Source of the DNA: Chitinophagales bacterium
GTDB taxonomy: Bacteria > Bacteroidota > Bacteroidia > Chitinophagales > JADIYW01
DNA: 64,000 nucleotides
NCBI GenBank assembly: GCA_020636545.1
Contig: JACJXS010000015.1
Coordinates: 43,596 to 107,595 of the forward strand
Reading direction: 5' to 3'
A model generated the notes under the pieces. The model searched no databases, was not told where the DNA came from, and saw only the letters and a list, made by a program, of their open reading frames with translations. The position numbers and the translations under genes were made by a program. Below, piece by piece: positions 37,631 through 40,266 of this stretch; the stretch's first letter is position 1, and each line of letters opens with the position of its first letter.

Positions 37631-38882
37631 CTTTCCATTTATCGAAATCGAGTAAACGATTACGGTAATACTCATACTGTTTCTGCCGCAGTTCTATCTC
37701 CCTGGGCAAACCCTCGCTAATGGAATTGGTCAAGGCATCAAATTTATCTAATATTTCCACAATACGCTCCTGCTCGGATAATGGAGGAATGGGGATTTTG
37801 AATTCCATTATTTTTTCTTTATTACCACGTGGCATTTTAGCACCTTTTGCGTGTTGCATATTATAAGAGAAAAAACTATCATCAGCTAGTATCTGATATA
37901 AATATCTAGCATCAACTCCTTTATCAATTAAATGAATTACAAGAACATCACCATTTGTACCTCCTTTACAATCAGCAAACCATATTTTTTTTAAGTATGG
38001 ACGAATATTTCCAATCAAAATGTCTCCAATATTGAAACAAGTTAAATTACCCGATATTGGAACATAATTTGATTTAGATTTGCCGGCTCTATCTTGTAAT
38101 AAATTTTCTACTCCAACATAATTATCCTCATTCACAAAAGAAAAATTTACTCTCTCTTTTGAATAAATCGCCACCTCCCCCAGCGTTTTCCACACTGTAC
38201 AGGGCGAATTGCAATTCGCCCCGACGGTTGCAATTCGCTCTGACGGTTGCAATTTTGTATCTTCAAATGCCAGCAATTGCTCCCTATAAAACGCATATTG
38301 TTTTTTTCTTGTTGTAAGCTCTGTTGTAAGCTCTGTTGTAAGCTCTGTTGTAAGCTCTGTGAACTTATCGAGAATGGCAACTATTTCTTGCTGAATTTTT
38401 AAGGGCGGAATGGGGATGAGGAGTTTTTCTAAATCTTTTGGATAAACGTGAGGAACACCTGAACCTTTTTGTAAATTATGAATCCATTGCTGATTATTTA
38501 ATAAAAAATGATAAACATATCTTGTACTCATAAAGCTCAAATCGGGCTTTACAGAAAAAGCATCTGAAACAAAAATTGGTTTATCCCAATACATTACAAA
38601 TCCTGCATAAGCTCCGCTTCCTGCAACAGTAATAGTTTCACCTTCACGATTAAATTCAGCATTGTAATATGCAGGAGTTTGACCACCACTAATTACAGGA
38701 ATATCTCCATCAATTTTATCTTTTGCTGTAATTGTTTTTCCTCGCTTCAATTCCGCCACTTCCCCCAGCGTTTTCCATTCCACTTTATTTAATTGAGAAT
38801 TGAGAATTGAGAGTTGAGAATTAAGTTCATTTTCCATTTTCAATTCTCCATTCTCCATTTTCATTTTATTTTCTTTGTTCAT
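37620..38882 (-). CDS. hsdS: Type I restriction-modification specificity subunit
   Basis: Two TRDs, each opening with WKTLGEVA, and two conserved coiled-coil regions (LDKFTELTT..RKKQYAFYREQLL and LDKFDALTN..RQKQYEYYRNRLL). An in-frame GTG at 38783 (VEWKTLGEV) is an alternative start that would leave the heptamer array untranslated. Confidence 0.9.
   Translation of the reverse strand: MNKENKMKMENGELKMENELNSQLSILNSQLNKVEWKTLGEVAELKRGKTITAKDKIDGDIPVISGGQTPAYYNAEFNREGETITVAGSGAYAGFVMYWDKPIFVSDAFSVKPDLSFMSTRYVYHFLLNNQQWIHNLQKGSGVPHVYPKDLEKLLIPIPPLKIQQEIVAILDKFTELTTELTTELTTELTTRKKQYAFYREQLLAFEDTKLQPSERIATVGANCNSPCTVWKTLGEVAIYSKERVNFSFVNEDNYVGVENLLQDRAGKSKSNYVPISGNLTCFNIGDILIGNIRPYLKKIWFADCKGGTNGDVLVIHLIDKGVDARYLYQILADDSFFSYNMQHAKGAKMPRGNKEKIMEFKIPIPPLSEQERIVEILDKFDALTNSISEGLPREIELRQKQYEYYRNRLLDFDKWKVEN
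38202..38221. repeat. 20-bp perfect palindrome GGGCGAATTGCAATTCGCCC (REP-like), copy inside hsdS
   Basis: Self-complementary sequence. GTAC at 38197-38200 lies on its 5' side. Confidence 0.9.
38209..38257. repeat. Degenerate 19-bp tandem repeat (TTGCAATTCGCCCCGACGG, about 2.6 copies) extending from the hsdS palindrome
   Basis: Units at 38209-27 and 38228-46, with a partial unit at 38247-57. Confidence 0.8.
38311..38358. repeat. Perfect 12-bp tandem repeat x4 (GTTGTAAGCTCT) inside hsdS, encoding (ELTT)x4
   Basis: Read directly: units at 38311-22, 38323-34, 38335-46 and 38347-58. Confidence 0.95.
38793..38820. repeat. TTGAGAA heptamer array x4 (hsdS codons about 21-30)
   Basis: ttgagaa ttgagaa ttgagag ttgagaa. 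Confidence 0.9.
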
Positions 38883-39003
38883 ATTTCATTTTTTTTGTCT
38901 GCACTGTGATTTTTTTGATTTATTTGATTGCCTTGATTTTGCATATTGTTCATTTTTAGTTTTCTATTTACATCATAAAAATCATTTAATCACAGAAATC
39001 ATG
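38883..39003. repeat. Leader-like element copy A (upstream of hsdS), with TGATT/AATCA pentamer arrays and an 8-bp inverted repeat ctgtgatt/aatcacag
   Basis: Both ends are shared with copy B: catattt..ttttttttgt..tgtgattttttt and aatcacaRaaatcaWgg. Confidence 0.6.
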
Positions 39004-39057
39004 GTTCAGATGTTTTCTATTTATAATTTTCCATTTATTTTTGTTGTTCAATTGTTA

Positions 39058-40266
39058 TTATTGTAATTTATCATTATTCCAATTTTGAGGATTGTTTTTT
39101 ATATAATCCGAGATAGCTTTATGTGATTTTTCATTTCGAATGATATGTTCGTAAAAATTACGTTGCCATATTTTATAATTTAATGTTTTAATTTTTTCCG
39201 TTGAGGCGGTTGGGGCGAATTCCGTTGAGGCGGTTGGGGCGAATTCCGTTGGGGCGAATTCCGTTGGGGCGAATTGCAATTCGCCCGTACTATCGGAAAA
39301 AATTGATTTGCTCTTATTATCGGAAATAATCTCTTTGCTCTTATTATTAGAAATTATAGAATCTTCTGAATTATTGGGGATTATTGGTGCGGTTGAGGCG
39401 AATTCCGTTGGGGCGGTTGGGGCGAATTCCGTTTGGGCGAATTCCATTGGGGCAAATTGCAATTCGCCCGTACTACTATTAAGATTCTTTTCTTCCGAAT
39501 TATTAGAAATTAGAGCTTCGCTCATATTATCCTTTTCCTTTAAAATTAAATCTTTTATTCTTTTTATTGTAGCGATTTTAAATCCTCTTATTATGGAGCC
39601 GATAGTTTGAGATGGGGATTTGAATTTTGGGGCGGTTGGGGGGAATTCCGTTGGGGCGGTTGGGGCGAATTGCAATTCGCCCGTACTATCGAAAAAAATT
39701 GATTCGCTCTTATTATCAGAAATAATCTCTTCGCCCGTATTATCGGAAATAATCTCTTCGCCCGTATTATCGGAAATAATCTCTTCGCCCGTATTATCGG
39801 AAATAATTGATTCGCTCTTATTCTCGGAAATAATTGATTCGCTCTTATTATCAGAAATAATCTCTTTGCCCGTATTTTCGGAAATAATTGATTCGCTCTT
39901 ATTATCAGAAATAATCTCTTCGCCCGTACTACTATTAAGATTCTCTTCTTTCGAATTATTAGAAATTAAAGCTTCGTCCATATTATTTTCTTTTTTAAAA
40001 ATAATTTCGATGATTCCATGGATATGATTGGGCATGATGATGTATTCGTGGATGCGGCAATTATCTCGAATGTTTTCGGTGTTTGCCCATTCTTCGAATG
40101 CAATTTGTCCGTATTCATTTAATATCATTTCACCGTTTTCTATTGCTCCAAATAAATTTGCTCTATCTTGGCAACATATTGTAATAAAATACAATCCTGC
40201 CTGTGCATAATCATATCCTTTTAATCGGATAGAACGACGATGGTGTTTTTGGGGATTGTATGGCAT
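39058..40266 (-). CDS. REP-associated tyrosine transposase (RayT)-like / IS200-type Y1 HUH protein with two large repeat insertions
   Basis: N-terminus MPYNPQKHHRRSIRLKGYDYAQAGLYFITICC..; HUH motif MPNHIHGII; central helix TIGSIIRGFKIATIKRI; catalytic Tyr context KIWQRNFYEHIIRN. The core pieces are separated by two low-complexity blocks of about 125 aa each. Confidence 0.8.
   Translation of the reverse strand: MPYNPQKHHRRSIRLKGYDYAQAGLYFITICCQDRANLFGAIENGEMILNEYGQIAFEEWANTENIRDNCRIHEYIIMPNHIHGIIEIIFKKENNMDEALISNNSKEENLNSSTGEEIISDNKSESIISENTGKEIISDNKSESIISENKSESIISDNTGEEIISDNTGEEIISDNTGEEIISDNKSESIFFDSTGELQFAPTAPTEFPPTAPKFKSPSQTIGSIIRGFKIATIKRIKDLILKEKDNMSEALISNNSEEKNLNSSTGELQFAPMEFAQTEFAPTAPTEFASTAPIIPNNSEDSIISNNKSKEIISDNKSKSIFSDSTGELQFAPTEFAPTEFAPTASTEFAPTASTEKIKTLNYKIWQRNFYEHIIRNEKSHKAISDYIKNNPQNWNNDKLQ
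39198..39266. repeat. GC-rich 24-bp x2 plus 15-bp x2 tandem units (CCGTT[GAGGCGGTT]GGGGCGAATT) leading into palindrome 1
   Basis: Encodes the TEFAPTAS/TEFAP repeats. Similar arrays lie at about 39386-39449 and 39626-39662. Confidence 0.85.
39267..39286. repeat. 20-bp perfect palindrome GGGCGAATTGCAATTCGCCC followed by GTAC, copy 1 in the RayT-like ORF
   Basis: Read directly; encodes GELQFAP on the minus strand. Confidence 0.9.
39450..39469. repeat. Palindrome copy 2 (one mismatch: GGGCAAATTGCAATTCGCCC) followed by GTAC
   Basis: Read directly. Confidence 0.85.
39663..39682. repeat. 20-bp perfect palindrome copy 3 followed by GTAC
   Basis: Read directly. Confidence 0.9.
39697..39930. repeat. 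27-bp in-frame tandem array, 8 full units plus 1 partial, of two alternating subtypes
   Basis: Subtypes aatctcttcgcccgtattatcggaaat (GEEIISDNT) and aattgattcgctcttattatcagaaat (SESIISDNK). Three diverged units lie at 39301-39381. Confidence 0.9.

Follow-up and report, generated by a model that had tools for sequence, protein, structure and literature searches.

The window (the whole 64-kb stretch of DNA that was analysed) contains a type IC restriction-modification operon in which a RayT gene lies between hsdM and hsdS. Four copies of a short palindrome, which we read as putative REPs, are located within the RayT gene and hsdS, together with tandem arrays of its half-sites.

34062-37208, minus strand: hsdR, last operon gene (Pfam HSDR_N, SWI2_SNF2, T1R_D3-like, EcoR124_C)
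37620-38882, minus strand: hsdS, type IC (EcoR124-like) specificity subunit, 420 aa (Pfam Methylase_S, 1.8e-46; PDB 7BST, 1.1e-38)
38197-38254: putative REP unit in hsdS, consisting of GTACA, the exact palindrome (38202-38221) and 19-bp half-site repeats (38209-38254)
39058-40266, minus strand: RayT / TnpA_REP, subclass 2.4 (Bertels group 4), 402 aa
39196-39275: half-site arrays by REP copy 3, TTCCGTTGAGGCGGTTGGGGCGAA (24 bp x 2.5) and GTTGGGGCGAATTCC (15 bp x 2.9), encoding (EFAPT)n / APTAST
39267-39286: putative REP copy 3, an exact match within RayT insert 2, immediately ahead of the WQ/Y region and at a clade-conserved site; GTAC at 39287-39290
39384-39458: half-site arrays by REP copy 2 (24 bp x 2.3 and 15 bp x 2.9)
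39450-39469: putative REP copy 2, with a single mismatch (G5A), within RayT insert 2; GELQFAP; GTAC at 39470-39473
39463-39560: 98-nt module, REP 3' arm followed by GTAC and by sequence encoding ...NSSTGE / ...EALISNNS...
39622-39667: short half-site array by REP copy 1, GTTGGGGCG x 2 with flanks
39663-39682: putative REP copy 1, exact; in RayT insert 1, the loop after the HUH strand; GELQFAP; GTAC at 39683-39686
39675-39928: 27-bp (81-bp) tandem array, 9.4 copies, encoding TGEEIISDN / KSESIISDN
40366-41910, minus strand: hsdM, first operon gene (Pfam N6_Mtase, 3.4e-116, and HsdM_N)

A pattern search of the 64 kb with a tolerance of up to three mismatches returns exactly four matches to GGGCGAATTGCAATTCGCCC, at 38202-38221, 39267-39286, 39450-39469 and 39663-39682. 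By chance none would be expected: 0 of 100 dinucleotide-preserving shuffles, which served as the control, contained a match. Three copies are exact, and the copy at 39450-39469 (GGGCAAATTG...) has a single mismatch, G5A. GTAC directly follows the copies at 39267, 39450 and 39663; the copy at 38202 is of opposite polarity, because GTACA precedes the palindrome. The four-copy palindrome with its GTAC flank, described in the initial annotation, is therefore borne out in its positions, mismatch and flanks, and so is the reversed orientation of the hsdS copy. Each copy is part of a larger shared unit, GTAC + palindrome + C(A/G)ACGG. The 20-mer is indeed richer in G+C than its surroundings (60% vs 31.5% across the window). 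The bottom of the stem is GGG/CCC, and the feet present in the window, GTAC and GTTG, are each one base away from GT[AG]G. The dyad comprises 10 self-complementary positions per arm and is predicted to form an 8-bp stem with a 4-nt loop (-8.7 kcal/mol, z -3.35, ViennaRNA). The stability check proposed in the initial annotation thus favors a hairpin: as single-stranded DNA the perfect copies have folding energies of -8.6 to -8.7 kcal/mol (z about -3.4, ViennaRNA), whereas in the mismatched copy the hairpin is weakened to -3.1 kcal/mol.

All four palindromes lie within uninterrupted minus-strand ORFs, and the extragenic location that defines REPs is not seen here. As had been claimed, every copy is translated in frame without breaking the ORF: GELQFAP appears three times in the 402-aa RayT ORF (at about aa 196, 267 and 328, with no stop codon) and GANCNSP once in the 420-aa hsdS. 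The copies are confined to 1.5 kb of the 64-kb window, and dispersal is not visible inside it. The 9-mer half-sites GGGCGAATT and AATTCGCCC are likewise confined to the repeat region within the 64 kb, where the 8-mer half-site cores each match one further position (34024 and 970, respectively). Tandem half-site arrays flank each copy on the side away from GTAC; they repeat every 15 and 24 bp in the RayT gene, and every 19 bp (about 3 units) in hsdS. The arrays by copy 2 (39384-39458) are a duplicate of 39201-39292 with 92% identity. Each unit of the 27-bp array opens with the REP 3' arm (ATTCGCCCGTA...). The 98-nt module is repeated at 39919-40016 with 83% identity, so that both RayT inserts open with the same module.

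In conspecific assemblies, RayT alleles with an open frame measure 331, 402 and 461 aa and contain 3 or 4 REPs. The copy number of the 27-bp array differs between assemblies, as length differences in contigs L113, L210, L212 and L216 show, and L210, which is conspecific, has an exact palindrome where the window has the mismatched copy 2. Thus, the RayT region is dynamic: modules and repeat units, all of them multiples of 3 bp, are gained and lost between strains while the ORF stays open.

The identification of the ORF that contains three of the palindromes as RayT-like, made in the initial annotation, is upheld by profile matches and by the predicted fold. The full-length product matches NCBIfam REP_Tyr_transpos (NF047646) at 1.6e-16; the inserts divide the match into two stretches, and its 60.5 bits fall short of the cut-off of 80. 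No Pfam match is obtained with the full-length protein; it appears only when the inserts are removed, the spliced core (RayT with both inserts cut out, scored against Pfam) reaching 34.3 bits for Y1_Tnp (cut-off 23). The core consists of aa 1-89, 214-241 and 357-402. It contains NHIH at aa 80-83 (MPNHIHGII, 78-86), which fits the HUH signature NH[IFV]H of subclass 2.4, and the W/Y motifs of that subclass, WQ at 367-368 (KIWQRNFYEH, 365-374) and YIKNNP at 388-393 (SDYIKNNP, 386-393). In the AF2 model, pLDDT is 82-97 in the core and below 50 in both inserts. Foldseek ranks 1-30 are IS200/IS605 Y1 transposases and the E. coli TnpA_REP 4ER8, with probabilities of 0.94-1.00; the splitting of the domain by the inserts keeps the E-values at only about 1e-3. 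The C-terminus aligns to residues 92-121 of 4ER8 (NIWQ...DYIYINP), including the DYIxxNP tyrosine motif. RayT thus has a complete HUH/W/Y motif set and a predicted Y1-HUH fold.

The REPs sit in two loops, one after the HUH strand and the other between helix alpha-C and the WQ strand; both loops are known to be variable in subclass 2.4. Two inserts made of REPs and tandem repeats lengthen RayT to 402 aa in this way. Judging from the model, the in-gene REPs encode a disordered linker, and the approximately 240 extra residues could impair the enzyme.

In hsdS, the REP unit lengthens the linker between the central conserved region and TRD2 by about 57 bp (19 aa, ...KLQPSERIATVGANCNSPC...). The comparison with hsdS sequences lacking the insert, which the initial annotation had called for, is consistent with an addition: both EcoR124II HsdS and the Flavobacterium CP015107 hsdS lack the 57 bp, with no extra residues at this place. 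RayT genes of this clade are usually located within type I restriction-modification operons.

Absence of the palindrome elsewhere, which the initial annotation had named as evidence against a REP, is not observed across genomes. The exact 20-mer is present in at least 119 genome stretches from several phyla, and this presence supports the REP reading. At least one GTNN foot accompanies 149 of 160 copies, and no ORF of at least 100 aa covers 123 of the 161 exact copies. GTAG is the commonest foot (109/320 feet), while the GTAC/GTTG of the window make up the second commonest pair. In Weeksellaceae MIP2422 and in Moraxella lacunata the 20-mer is dispersed. These sequence data support the view that in other genomes the palindrome acts as a GTAG-class REP.

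Conservation within the RayT clade points in the same direction. GELQFAP is found in 114 of the 120 closest homologues (93 exact, 21 with one mismatch). In 21 of the 119 genome stretches the exact 20-mer lies within a RayT homologue, almost always in the same frame, and the position of copy 3, before the WQ/Y region, is kept in these 21 loci and in most homologues. For an unbiased set, 80 metagenome loci were selected by peptide patterns outside the REP; in nearly all genes whose two insertion sites could both be delimited, one of these sites holds a GGGCG...CGCCC palindrome. The GELQFAP codons in this set are GGC GAA TTG CAA TTC GCC in 11 of 11 peptides, and codon identity is 0.93 at GELQFAP compared with 0.525 at identical residues of the alpha-C block. 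Other clades show compensatory stem variants (e.g., GGGGTGAATTGCAATTCACCCC and GGGGAGAATTGCGATTCTCCCC) and clade-specific palindromes (e.g., GGGCGAAAAATTTTTCGCCC and GGGCGTATGCAATACGCCC). Other frames are used as well: GANCNSP in hsdS, L009, L138 and L149, and GRIAIRP in P0023. The identical codons, together with the compensatory changes in other clades, indicate selection on the DNA hairpin. Comparative data of this kind, including the occasional other frames, show that the hairpin is maintained as DNA and not as a peptide. The copy before WQ/Y, being near-universal in the clade, is an ancestral component of the gene and not a recent insertion.

In our opinion, the RAYT of this locus, a member of subclass 2.4 (group 4), has a cognate REP hairpin of which the four palindromes are copies; to this reading we assign a probability of about 85%. 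The TnpA_REP biochemistry reportedly described by Messing in 2012 is the basis of the hairpin binding, foot guiding, and cleavage and rejoining that are proposed here. A further source for binding, guiding and cleavage is Corneloup 2021. By analogy, the enzyme would bind the folded hairpin on single-stranded DNA, the 5' foot tetranucleotide (here GTAC) would serve as guide, and cleavage and rejoining would occur a few bases away. RayT activity, slippage and recombination at the hairpin could then give rise to local REP copies and half-site arrays, of which presumably only in-frame copies in tolerant loops would survive, in the enzyme's own gene and, once, in the adjacent one. The hsdS copy may stem from slippage or homologous recombination instead of RayT. 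The near-universal retention of the copy before WQ/Y suggests a possible cis role for the element itself, e.g., as a site that the enzyme binds either for regulation or to mobilise its gene. The experimental RAYT studies consulted deal exclusively with groups 2 and 3. Cleavage in the S. maltophilia system was abolished by a GTAC foot, and the foot here is likewise GTAC, which counts against our main reading, as do the clustering of all four copies within 1.5 kb of the window, the NCBIfam score of the full-length protein below its cut-off and the length of the inserts.

The alternative that survives best, although we consider it unlikely, is that the palindromes are neutral passengers, inserted by RayT near its own gene into harmless loops, with neither a cis function nor selection at the DNA level; this is close to the reading offered by Quentin et al. 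2018 (PMC6006769). The predicted disorder and peripheral position of both inserts, the free variation of REP copy and repeat numbers between conspecific assemblies, and the stem-breaking mismatch in one copy of the window all agree with it. Against it speak the six palindrome codons, identical in 11 of 11 unbiased orthologues where synonymous identity elsewhere in the gene is 0.525, the compensatory nature of stem changes between clades, and the presence of the element at the same site in 114 of the 120 closest homologues. Moreover, perfect palindromes are prone to deletion, and their retention therefore speaks for selection or constant renewal.

A more improbable alternative makes RayT and its REPs a domesticated accessory of type I restriction-modification, with the hsdS REP as a cis site for TRD exchange or hsd control. 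The association is strong: RayT lies within a type I operon, in the same orientation, on 5 of the 6 long contigs that were looked up and at 12 of 34 unbiased loci that extend 2 kb or more on each side. REPs also recur directly after conserved helices of hsdS, namely the central helix here, and the C-terminal helix and stop codon in L200 and L202. In conspecific hsdS alleles TRD1 and TRD2 are swapped, and the REP linker is kept in all alleles seen. If this reading were true, RayT would be a conserved accessory of type I operons in Bacteroidota and other phyla rather than a mere guest, and an HUH enzyme would act via hairpins, including the one at the boundary of the central conserved region and TRD2 in hsdS and those that follow hsdS stop codons in relatives, to swap TRDs or to regulate or mobilise hsd. 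The exchange breakpoints, however, coincide with the ordinary conserved WKTLGEV and IPIPPL boxes, 33-39 nt from the REP. Homologous recombination, as in other type I systems, would account for such breakpoints. In addition, the 64-kb window contains no silent hsdS cassette, RayT is missing from PADLOC, and the hsdS-hsdR spacer, being host to unrelated embedded genes as well (AAA_13, PDDEXK_4 and RhuM), may simply be a permissive landing site. A literature search found no paper mentioning the type I context of this RayT clade, and the word "restriction" occurs 0 times in Quentin et al. 2018 (PMC6006769).

The codon data largely refute another proposal, very improbable in our view, in which GELQFAPT is conserved for its function as a peptide in the enzyme and the DNA palindrome is a by-product. 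The peptide and its reading frame are kept in most close homologues, as this proposal would require, but the codons are invariant and include the G+C-rich GGC, TTG, TTC and GCC in a window of 31.5% G+C, identical DNA is read as GANCNSP (hsdS, L009, L138, L149) or GRIAIRP (P0023), the 20-mer is mostly extragenic in other genomes, and the GELQFAP segment is predicted to be disordered. Least probable of all is an operator for a dimeric regulator or an intrinsic terminator or attenuator of the hsd operon: a perfect dyad between genes of one operon would suit it, but none of the four copies is followed by a T-run, the terminator scan reports none, no Rfam family matches, every copy lies inside an ORF, and across phyla the element goes together with RayT genes and GTNN feet, which leaves this reading disfavoured.

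Taken as REPs with their cognate RAYT, the palindromes can be compared with several known systems. The TnpA enzymes of IS200/IS605 elements (IS608, ISDra2) share the Y1-HUH fold, being the best Foldseek matches, and the recognition of single-stranded DNA hairpins with a guide tetranucleotide. They differ in that their hairpins are located at the element ends, outside the transposase ORF, and in that whole units move and reach a high copy number. The E. coli REP system (RayT YafM, 4ER8, RAYT group 2) is similar in its HUH/Y1 fold, in the alignable C-terminal WQ...DYIxxNP and in its substrate, a hairpin with a 5' guide tetranucleotide. Unlike the palindromes described here, E. coli REPs have an imperfect, bulged stem and a strict GTAG foot, and they are extragenic, flanking the gene and numbering hundreds of copies, with no REP within the gene.

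Rickettsia palindromic elements (RPEs) are about 100-150 bp long and specific to Rickettsia, and are not known to have a cognate transposase gene. What they share with the present case is that they are in-frame palindromic repeats in functional ORFs, adding surface peptide segments (summarised in PMC3733652). Here, by contrast, a 20-nt GTAG-class REP has its RayT in place, the unit is about 30-60 bp, and the hosts are Bacteroidota. Thus, the likeness to RPEs drawn in the initial annotation holds for the in-frame decoration of ORFs, and is functional only; a recent RPE-type insertion does not agree with the ancestral, clade-wide site. The consulted passages of Di Nocera, De Gregorio and Rocco (2013, BMC Genomics 14:522) class RPE-4 and RPE-6 as CGTC-type REPs and report intragenic GTAG/CGTC REPs in frame in known genes, often as dimers or groups that encode 20-30 aa and are read as tolerated decorations. 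The stress in these passages is on replication and repair genes in Opitutus, Rickettsia and Thauera, and REPs within the RAYT gene itself or within hsdS are not described in them.

The closest likeness is to the REPtrons of subclass 2.4, which corresponds to RAYT group 4 of Bertels et al. 2017 (Quentin, Siguier, Chandler and Fichant 2018, BMC Genomics 19:475, PMC6006769). Their REPs have a stem bottom of three G-C pairs, can show a "double foot" (GT[AG]G...C[TC]AC), and lie in frame inside tnpA_REP, in most cases between HUH and Y (Quentin et al. 2018, PMC6006769). Shared features include the motifs NH[IFV]H, WQ and YIxNNP (Table 1, PMC6006769), hosts that include Bacteroidetes, Cyanobacteria and members of scattered phyla, short DNA repeats that make up a variable loop behind the HUH strand (PMC6006769), and long REPs with the three G-C pairs in that in-gene position. 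The present RayT is extreme, having 402 aa where the subclass median is 194 and the longest of the 120 closest homologues has 281; three REPs lie within its gene and a spill-over copy in hsdS, and the feet are GTAC/GTTG where those of the subclass are GT[AG]G. The intragenic location, which had been called unusual, is not so for this enzyme but is the distinguishing feature of subclass 2.4 (PMC6006769). In-frame REPs in the RayT gene are a published habit of this subclass, and the locus is a new example of it, not a new phenomenon.

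The exact 20-bp palindrome GGGCGAATTGCAATTCGCCC was found in the window at 38202, 39267 and 39663, and once more, with one mismatch, at 39450; shuffled versions of the window contained no match to it. GTAC directly follows each of the three copies at 39.2-39.7 kb, whereas the copy at 38202 has GTACA in front of it and is therefore of opposite polarity. At 60% G+C the palindrome stands out from the window (31.5%), and its 9-mer half-sites have no occurrence elsewhere within the 64 kb. Folded as single-stranded DNA, the perfect copies form a hairpin of about -8.7 kcal/mol (z about -3.4), compared with only -3.1 kcal/mol for the mismatched copy. 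Thus, the initial annotation was right about the positions, the GTAC flank and the reversed hsdS copy, and the hairpin that it proposed to check is stable in the perfect copies. Each REP belongs to a larger unit, GTAC + palindrome + C(A/G)ACGG, and is adjoined on the side opposite GTAC by tandem arrays of half-sites with periods of 15 and 24 bp in the RayT gene and 19 bp (about three units) in hsdS. A terminator or operator reading of the palindrome is rejected: T-runs and terminator-scan matches are missing at the copies, every one of which lies within an ORF. No known RNA family was matched at E ≤ 1 between 33500 and 42500, and three matches elsewhere were at chance level.

The region is spanned by a single type IC restriction-modification (R-M) operon with the following genes:

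40366-41910, minus strand, hsdM
39058-40266, minus strand, 402-aa RayT ORF (NCBIfam REP_Tyr_transpos, 1.6e-16)
37620-38882, minus strand, hsdS, EcoR124II-like S subunit (7BST, 1.1e-38)
37245-37616, minus strand, four-helix-bundle (23S rRNA IVS protein) gene, 123-aa ORF, 120 aa from the ATG start
34062-37208, minus strand, hsdR

The 402-aa ORF encodes an enzyme of the RayT (TnpA_REP) class, as had been supposed from its sequence. Its REP_Tyr_transpos match falls into two stretches and stays under the curated cut-off, and the unspliced ORF has no Pfam match; a normal core is broken by two long low-complexity inserts. In silico removal of these inserts yields a 162-aa protein that passes Pfam Y1_Tnp and aligns with E. 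coli TnpA_REP (4ER8) over the WQ...DYIxxNP region. The 30 best Foldseek matches of the RayT model are IS200/IS605 Y1 transposases and 4ER8. The protein carries the motifs NHIH, WQ and YIKNNP, which place it in subclass 2.4. Insert 1 follows the HUH strand (HIHGIIEI) and contains one REP together with 9.4 tandem units of 27 bp (81 bp), each of which opens with the 3' arm of the REP; insert 2, which lies between helix KFKSPSQTIGSIIRGFKIATIKRIKDLI and KIWQRNFYEHIIRNE, contains two REPs, and a 98-nt module of identical type stands at the start of both. In the AlphaFold2 model (55 homologues) pLDDT is 82-97 in the core and below 50 in both inserts, so that the REPs of this gene are placed in disordered loops. 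It should also be noted that a 41-nt direct repeat (78% identity; 38888-38928 and 40267-40307) lies directly upstream of the hsdS and RayT start codons. Copies of one leader thus stand on both sides of the RayT gene, possibly a trace of its entry into the operon.

The initial annotation held that absence of the palindrome from the rest of the genome and from related strains would speak against its reading; a scan across genomes found the exact 20-mer in at least 119 genome stretches. Hosts among the matches listed include many Bacteroidota, Moraxella, Mannheimia, Agitococcus, cyanobacteria, Dehalococcoidia, Ignavibacteria and Akkermansiaceae. Among these matches, at least one GTNN foot is present in 149 of the 160 copies with readable flanks (GTAG 109, GTTG 34, GTAA 29, GTAC 22), and GTAC/GTTG, the foot pair of the window, is the second commonest combination. 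For 123 of 161 copies listed there is no surrounding ORF of at least 100 aa; 19 of the 161 lie within RayT homologues, and a few lie in other real genes. The 20-mer is thus a genuine REP, which elsewhere is mostly extragenic and is common to several phyla. Its distribution fits horizontal spread of REPtrons. A literature search on the 20-mer itself returned nothing relevant. In Mannheimia glucosida (CP176502, locus L087), exact 20-mers at 7192 and 7354 with feet GTAG...CTAC lie in frame in an 801-aa ORF, presumably RnfC-like; here the same REP decorates an unrelated gene in a gammaproteobacterium.

The REP inside RayT genes is conserved. Among the matches listed, 21 of the 119 genome stretches have the 20-mer within a RayT homologue (43-80% identity), almost always located past the alpha-C helix, ahead of the WQ strand, and translated as STGELQFAPT(APT)n. 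GELQFAP is present exactly in 93, and with at most one mismatch in 114, of the 120 homologues closest to the spliced core; 14 of the 120 have two or more copies. The 120 homologues have a median length of 210 aa and a maximum of 281 aa, which makes the 402-aa RayT of the window a length outlier. As a safeguard against ascertainment by the palindrome, 80 metagenome loci were fetched with core-only peptide patterns. In 59 of these the limits of both insertion sites could be set, and in almost every one of the 59 genes a GGGCG...CGCCC palindrome occupies one of the two sites. Across the metagenome loci the palindrome sequence depends on the clade (e.g., GGGCGAAAAATTTTTCGCCC, GGGCGTATGCAATACGCCC, GGGCGAATGATGATTCGCCC), with compensatory double changes in the stem (e.g., GGGGTGAATTGCAATTCACCCC, GGGGAGAATTGCGATTCTCCCC). 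By these sequence comparisons, the in-gene REP is ancestral in this RayT clade and nearly universal there.

The constraint on the in-gene copy is exerted at the DNA level. In the core-selected metagenome sample, six codons are identical in 11 of 11 GELQFAP peptides; codon identity is 0.93, with variation confined to the seventh codon, outside the palindrome, compared with 0.525 at identical residues of the alpha-C block. Moreover, some genes, and hsdS as well, translate the REP DNA in a different frame. Both findings, the codon identity and the use of other frames, speak against GELQFAP as a peptide motif, a reading that we reject; it is thus the REP hairpin that is under selection. The near-universal, sequence-perfect retention of the copy before the WQ/Y region suggests that this copy may act in cis, for example in self-recognition, regulation or mobilization, rather than being a merely tolerated insertion. 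Four relatives (L200, L201, L205, L209) have a second exact REP just past the RayT stop codon, oriented GTA[AC]...C[AG]A, as is the in-gene copy, in L201, L205 and L209, and with GTTG at both feet in L200. The in-gene and downstream REPs of these relatives flank about 170-190 bp encoding the WQ/Y catalytic end. The window has no such REP just past the RayT stop codon.

Conspecific contigs, located through identical HsdM or four-helix-bundle proteins, show rapid in-frame gain and loss of modules. The RayT alleles (L210, L211, L212, L216 and L113 versus the window) differ in 27-bp units and REP modules and have 3 or 4 REPs; open alleles of 331 aa (L216), 402 aa (window) and 461 aa (L210, four exact REPs) have all motifs intact. 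Most short-read contigs break inside the RayT repeats, and the truncated 354-aa ORF of L211, close to a contig end, may be an assembly artifact. An artifact is rejected as the source of the architecture as such, which recurs in the independent assemblies L113 and L210-L216; a single 27-bp unit distinguishes L113, a 589-bp MAG contig, from the window. With 95% identity between L113 and the window, the MAG of L113, HKST-UBA60, represents the same species or one closely related. This MAG encodes a second RayT paralogue (L010, JAGQYH010000016.1, 285-860) of 192 aa, which has 61% identity to the spliced core, one REP inside the gene and no large inserts. The organism may thus have at least two RayT genes of this kind.

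The fourth REP lies in hsdS. At the linker EcoR124II HsdS reads LLSFKEGE-VEWKTLGEI and the window HsdS LLAFEDTKLQPSERIATVGANCNSPCTVWKTLGEV; the latter is longer by about 19 residues (57 bp, in three 19-bp units), which sit exactly at the junction of the central conserved helix and TRD2. A type IC hsdS beside RayT in Flavobacterium (CP015107, L202) has no linker insert and reads YYREQLLRFDDSVEWKTMGDV; its REP lies immediately past the hsdS stop codon. The comparison with orthologues proposed in the initial annotation thus gives two that do without the additional residues. The linker REP is kept in every conspecific hsdS allele that spans it. Compared with the window, alleles L216, L223, L219 and L217 have two types of TRD1 and at least three of TRD2; the compared species-mates have an identical four-helix-bundle protein and flanks about 99.5% identical. 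The idea that the REP is the breakpoint of these domain swaps is not supported: the exchange points coincide with the ordinary WKTLGEV and IPIPPL boxes, which lie 33-39 nt from the REP, so that homologous recombination suffices to explain the swaps. A tblastn search of the window with the alternative alleles found no silent hsdS cassettes.

Other repeats were observed in and around hsdS. Its central conserved region has four perfect 12-bp repeats TGTTGTAAGCTC (38310-38360), translated as (TELT)4, where conspecific alleles read TELTTELTAELTTELT; we take these to be of the same kind as the TAEL x2/x3 repeats of EcoR124I/II, which determine how long the spacer in the recognition sequence is. The four-helix-bundle gene lies between inverted arrays of a 7-nt unit, AATTGAG (34 nt, 85% complementary; 37165-37198 and 37606-37639), which overlap the hsdR N-terminus and the hsdS 3' end. 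As RNA, the 506-nt stretch folds into a structure closed by a terminal stem of about 30 bp around the ORF (z -2.85), closely resembling an rRNA intervening-sequence cassette. A third heptamer-array pair, AATTGAG x 4.6 beside CATTTTC x 5.9 at the 5' end of the hsdS ORF (38791-38867), forms a hairpin (-19 kcal/mol as RNA, z -3.3), and its 22 translated residues have no counterpart in EcoR124II HsdS.

The setting itself recurs, and it does so much more frequently than expected by chance. In 5 of 6 look-ups picked only for long contigs (Paenimyroides aestuarii CP102382, Chryseobacterium NEB161 CP050993, Flavobacterium CP015107 and two metagenome assemblies), a RayT of this family is co-oriented within a type I R-M operon, usually as hsdS-RayT-hsdR. 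Of the 34 unbiased metagenome loci that had at least 2 kb of sequence on each side, at least 12 showed the same embedding; as the Hsd proteins of the window were the sole queries, this count is a lower bound. The association loci comprise window 34062-41910, L120, L129, L158-L162 and L200-L208. The operons represent more than one type I family, with EcoR124_C in some hsdR products and T1RH-like_C in others. The word "restriction" does not occur in Quentin et al. 2018 (PMC6006769), Bertels 2017 does not mention the association, and a literature search for a link between RayT and type I R-M returned nothing relevant. PADLOC assigned neither RayT nor the four-helix-bundle protein to a defence family. 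The hsdS-hsdR spacer also houses unrelated embedded genes, and its being a permissive landing site for RayT is therefore the simplest reading. That RayT with its in-gene REP is a domesticated accessory of type I R-M operons we consider very improbable.

How the copies arose can be outlined by analogy with the biochemistry of TnpA_REP groups 2 and 3. RayT would bind the folded REP on single-stranded DNA, use the foot tetranucleotide as a guide, and cleave and rejoin nearby; in one system of group 3, cleavage was lost when the foot was GTAC. At this locus, the REP copies and half-site arrays could stem from RayT activity, or from slippage or recombination at the hairpins, and only in-frame copies within tolerant loops would survive. 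The 331-, 402- and 461-aa alleles, together with the copy in a neighboring gene, could help to decide whether RayT acts on the gene that encodes it. Should the R-M association hold in a proper survey, it would tie domesticated HUH transposases to defence loci.

The initial annotation is confirmed in its observation and supported in its RayT/REP interpretation, including the in-frame copies; the location that it considered exceptional had already been published. Di Nocera et al. 2013 (PMC3733652) catalogued REPs with GTAG or CGTC tags that are translated in frame within other genes, and likened them to Rickettsia RPEs. Quentin, Siguier, Chandler and Fichant (2018; PMC6006769) split the TnpA_Y1 proteins into subclasses, of which 2.4 (Bertels group 4; motifs NH[IFV]H, WQ and YIxNNP) occurs in Cyanobacteria, Bacteroidetes and various phyla. 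It has long REPs, either with a stem whose bottom consists of three G-C pairs or with a "double foot" GT[AG]G...C[TC]AC, and short DNA repeats make the loop behind the HUH strand highly variable. The "remarkable and unique feature" of the subclass is frame-preserving REPs within tnpA_REP genes, generally in the HUH-Y interval (PMC6006769). At its core the finding is thus one more example of a phenomenon already in print and will hardly surprise a specialist, but the locus adds DNA-level selection, natural length alleles and the R-M association. With subclass 2.4, the RayT of the window shares both the NHIH/WQ/YIKNNP motifs and the in-frame REPs inside the gene.
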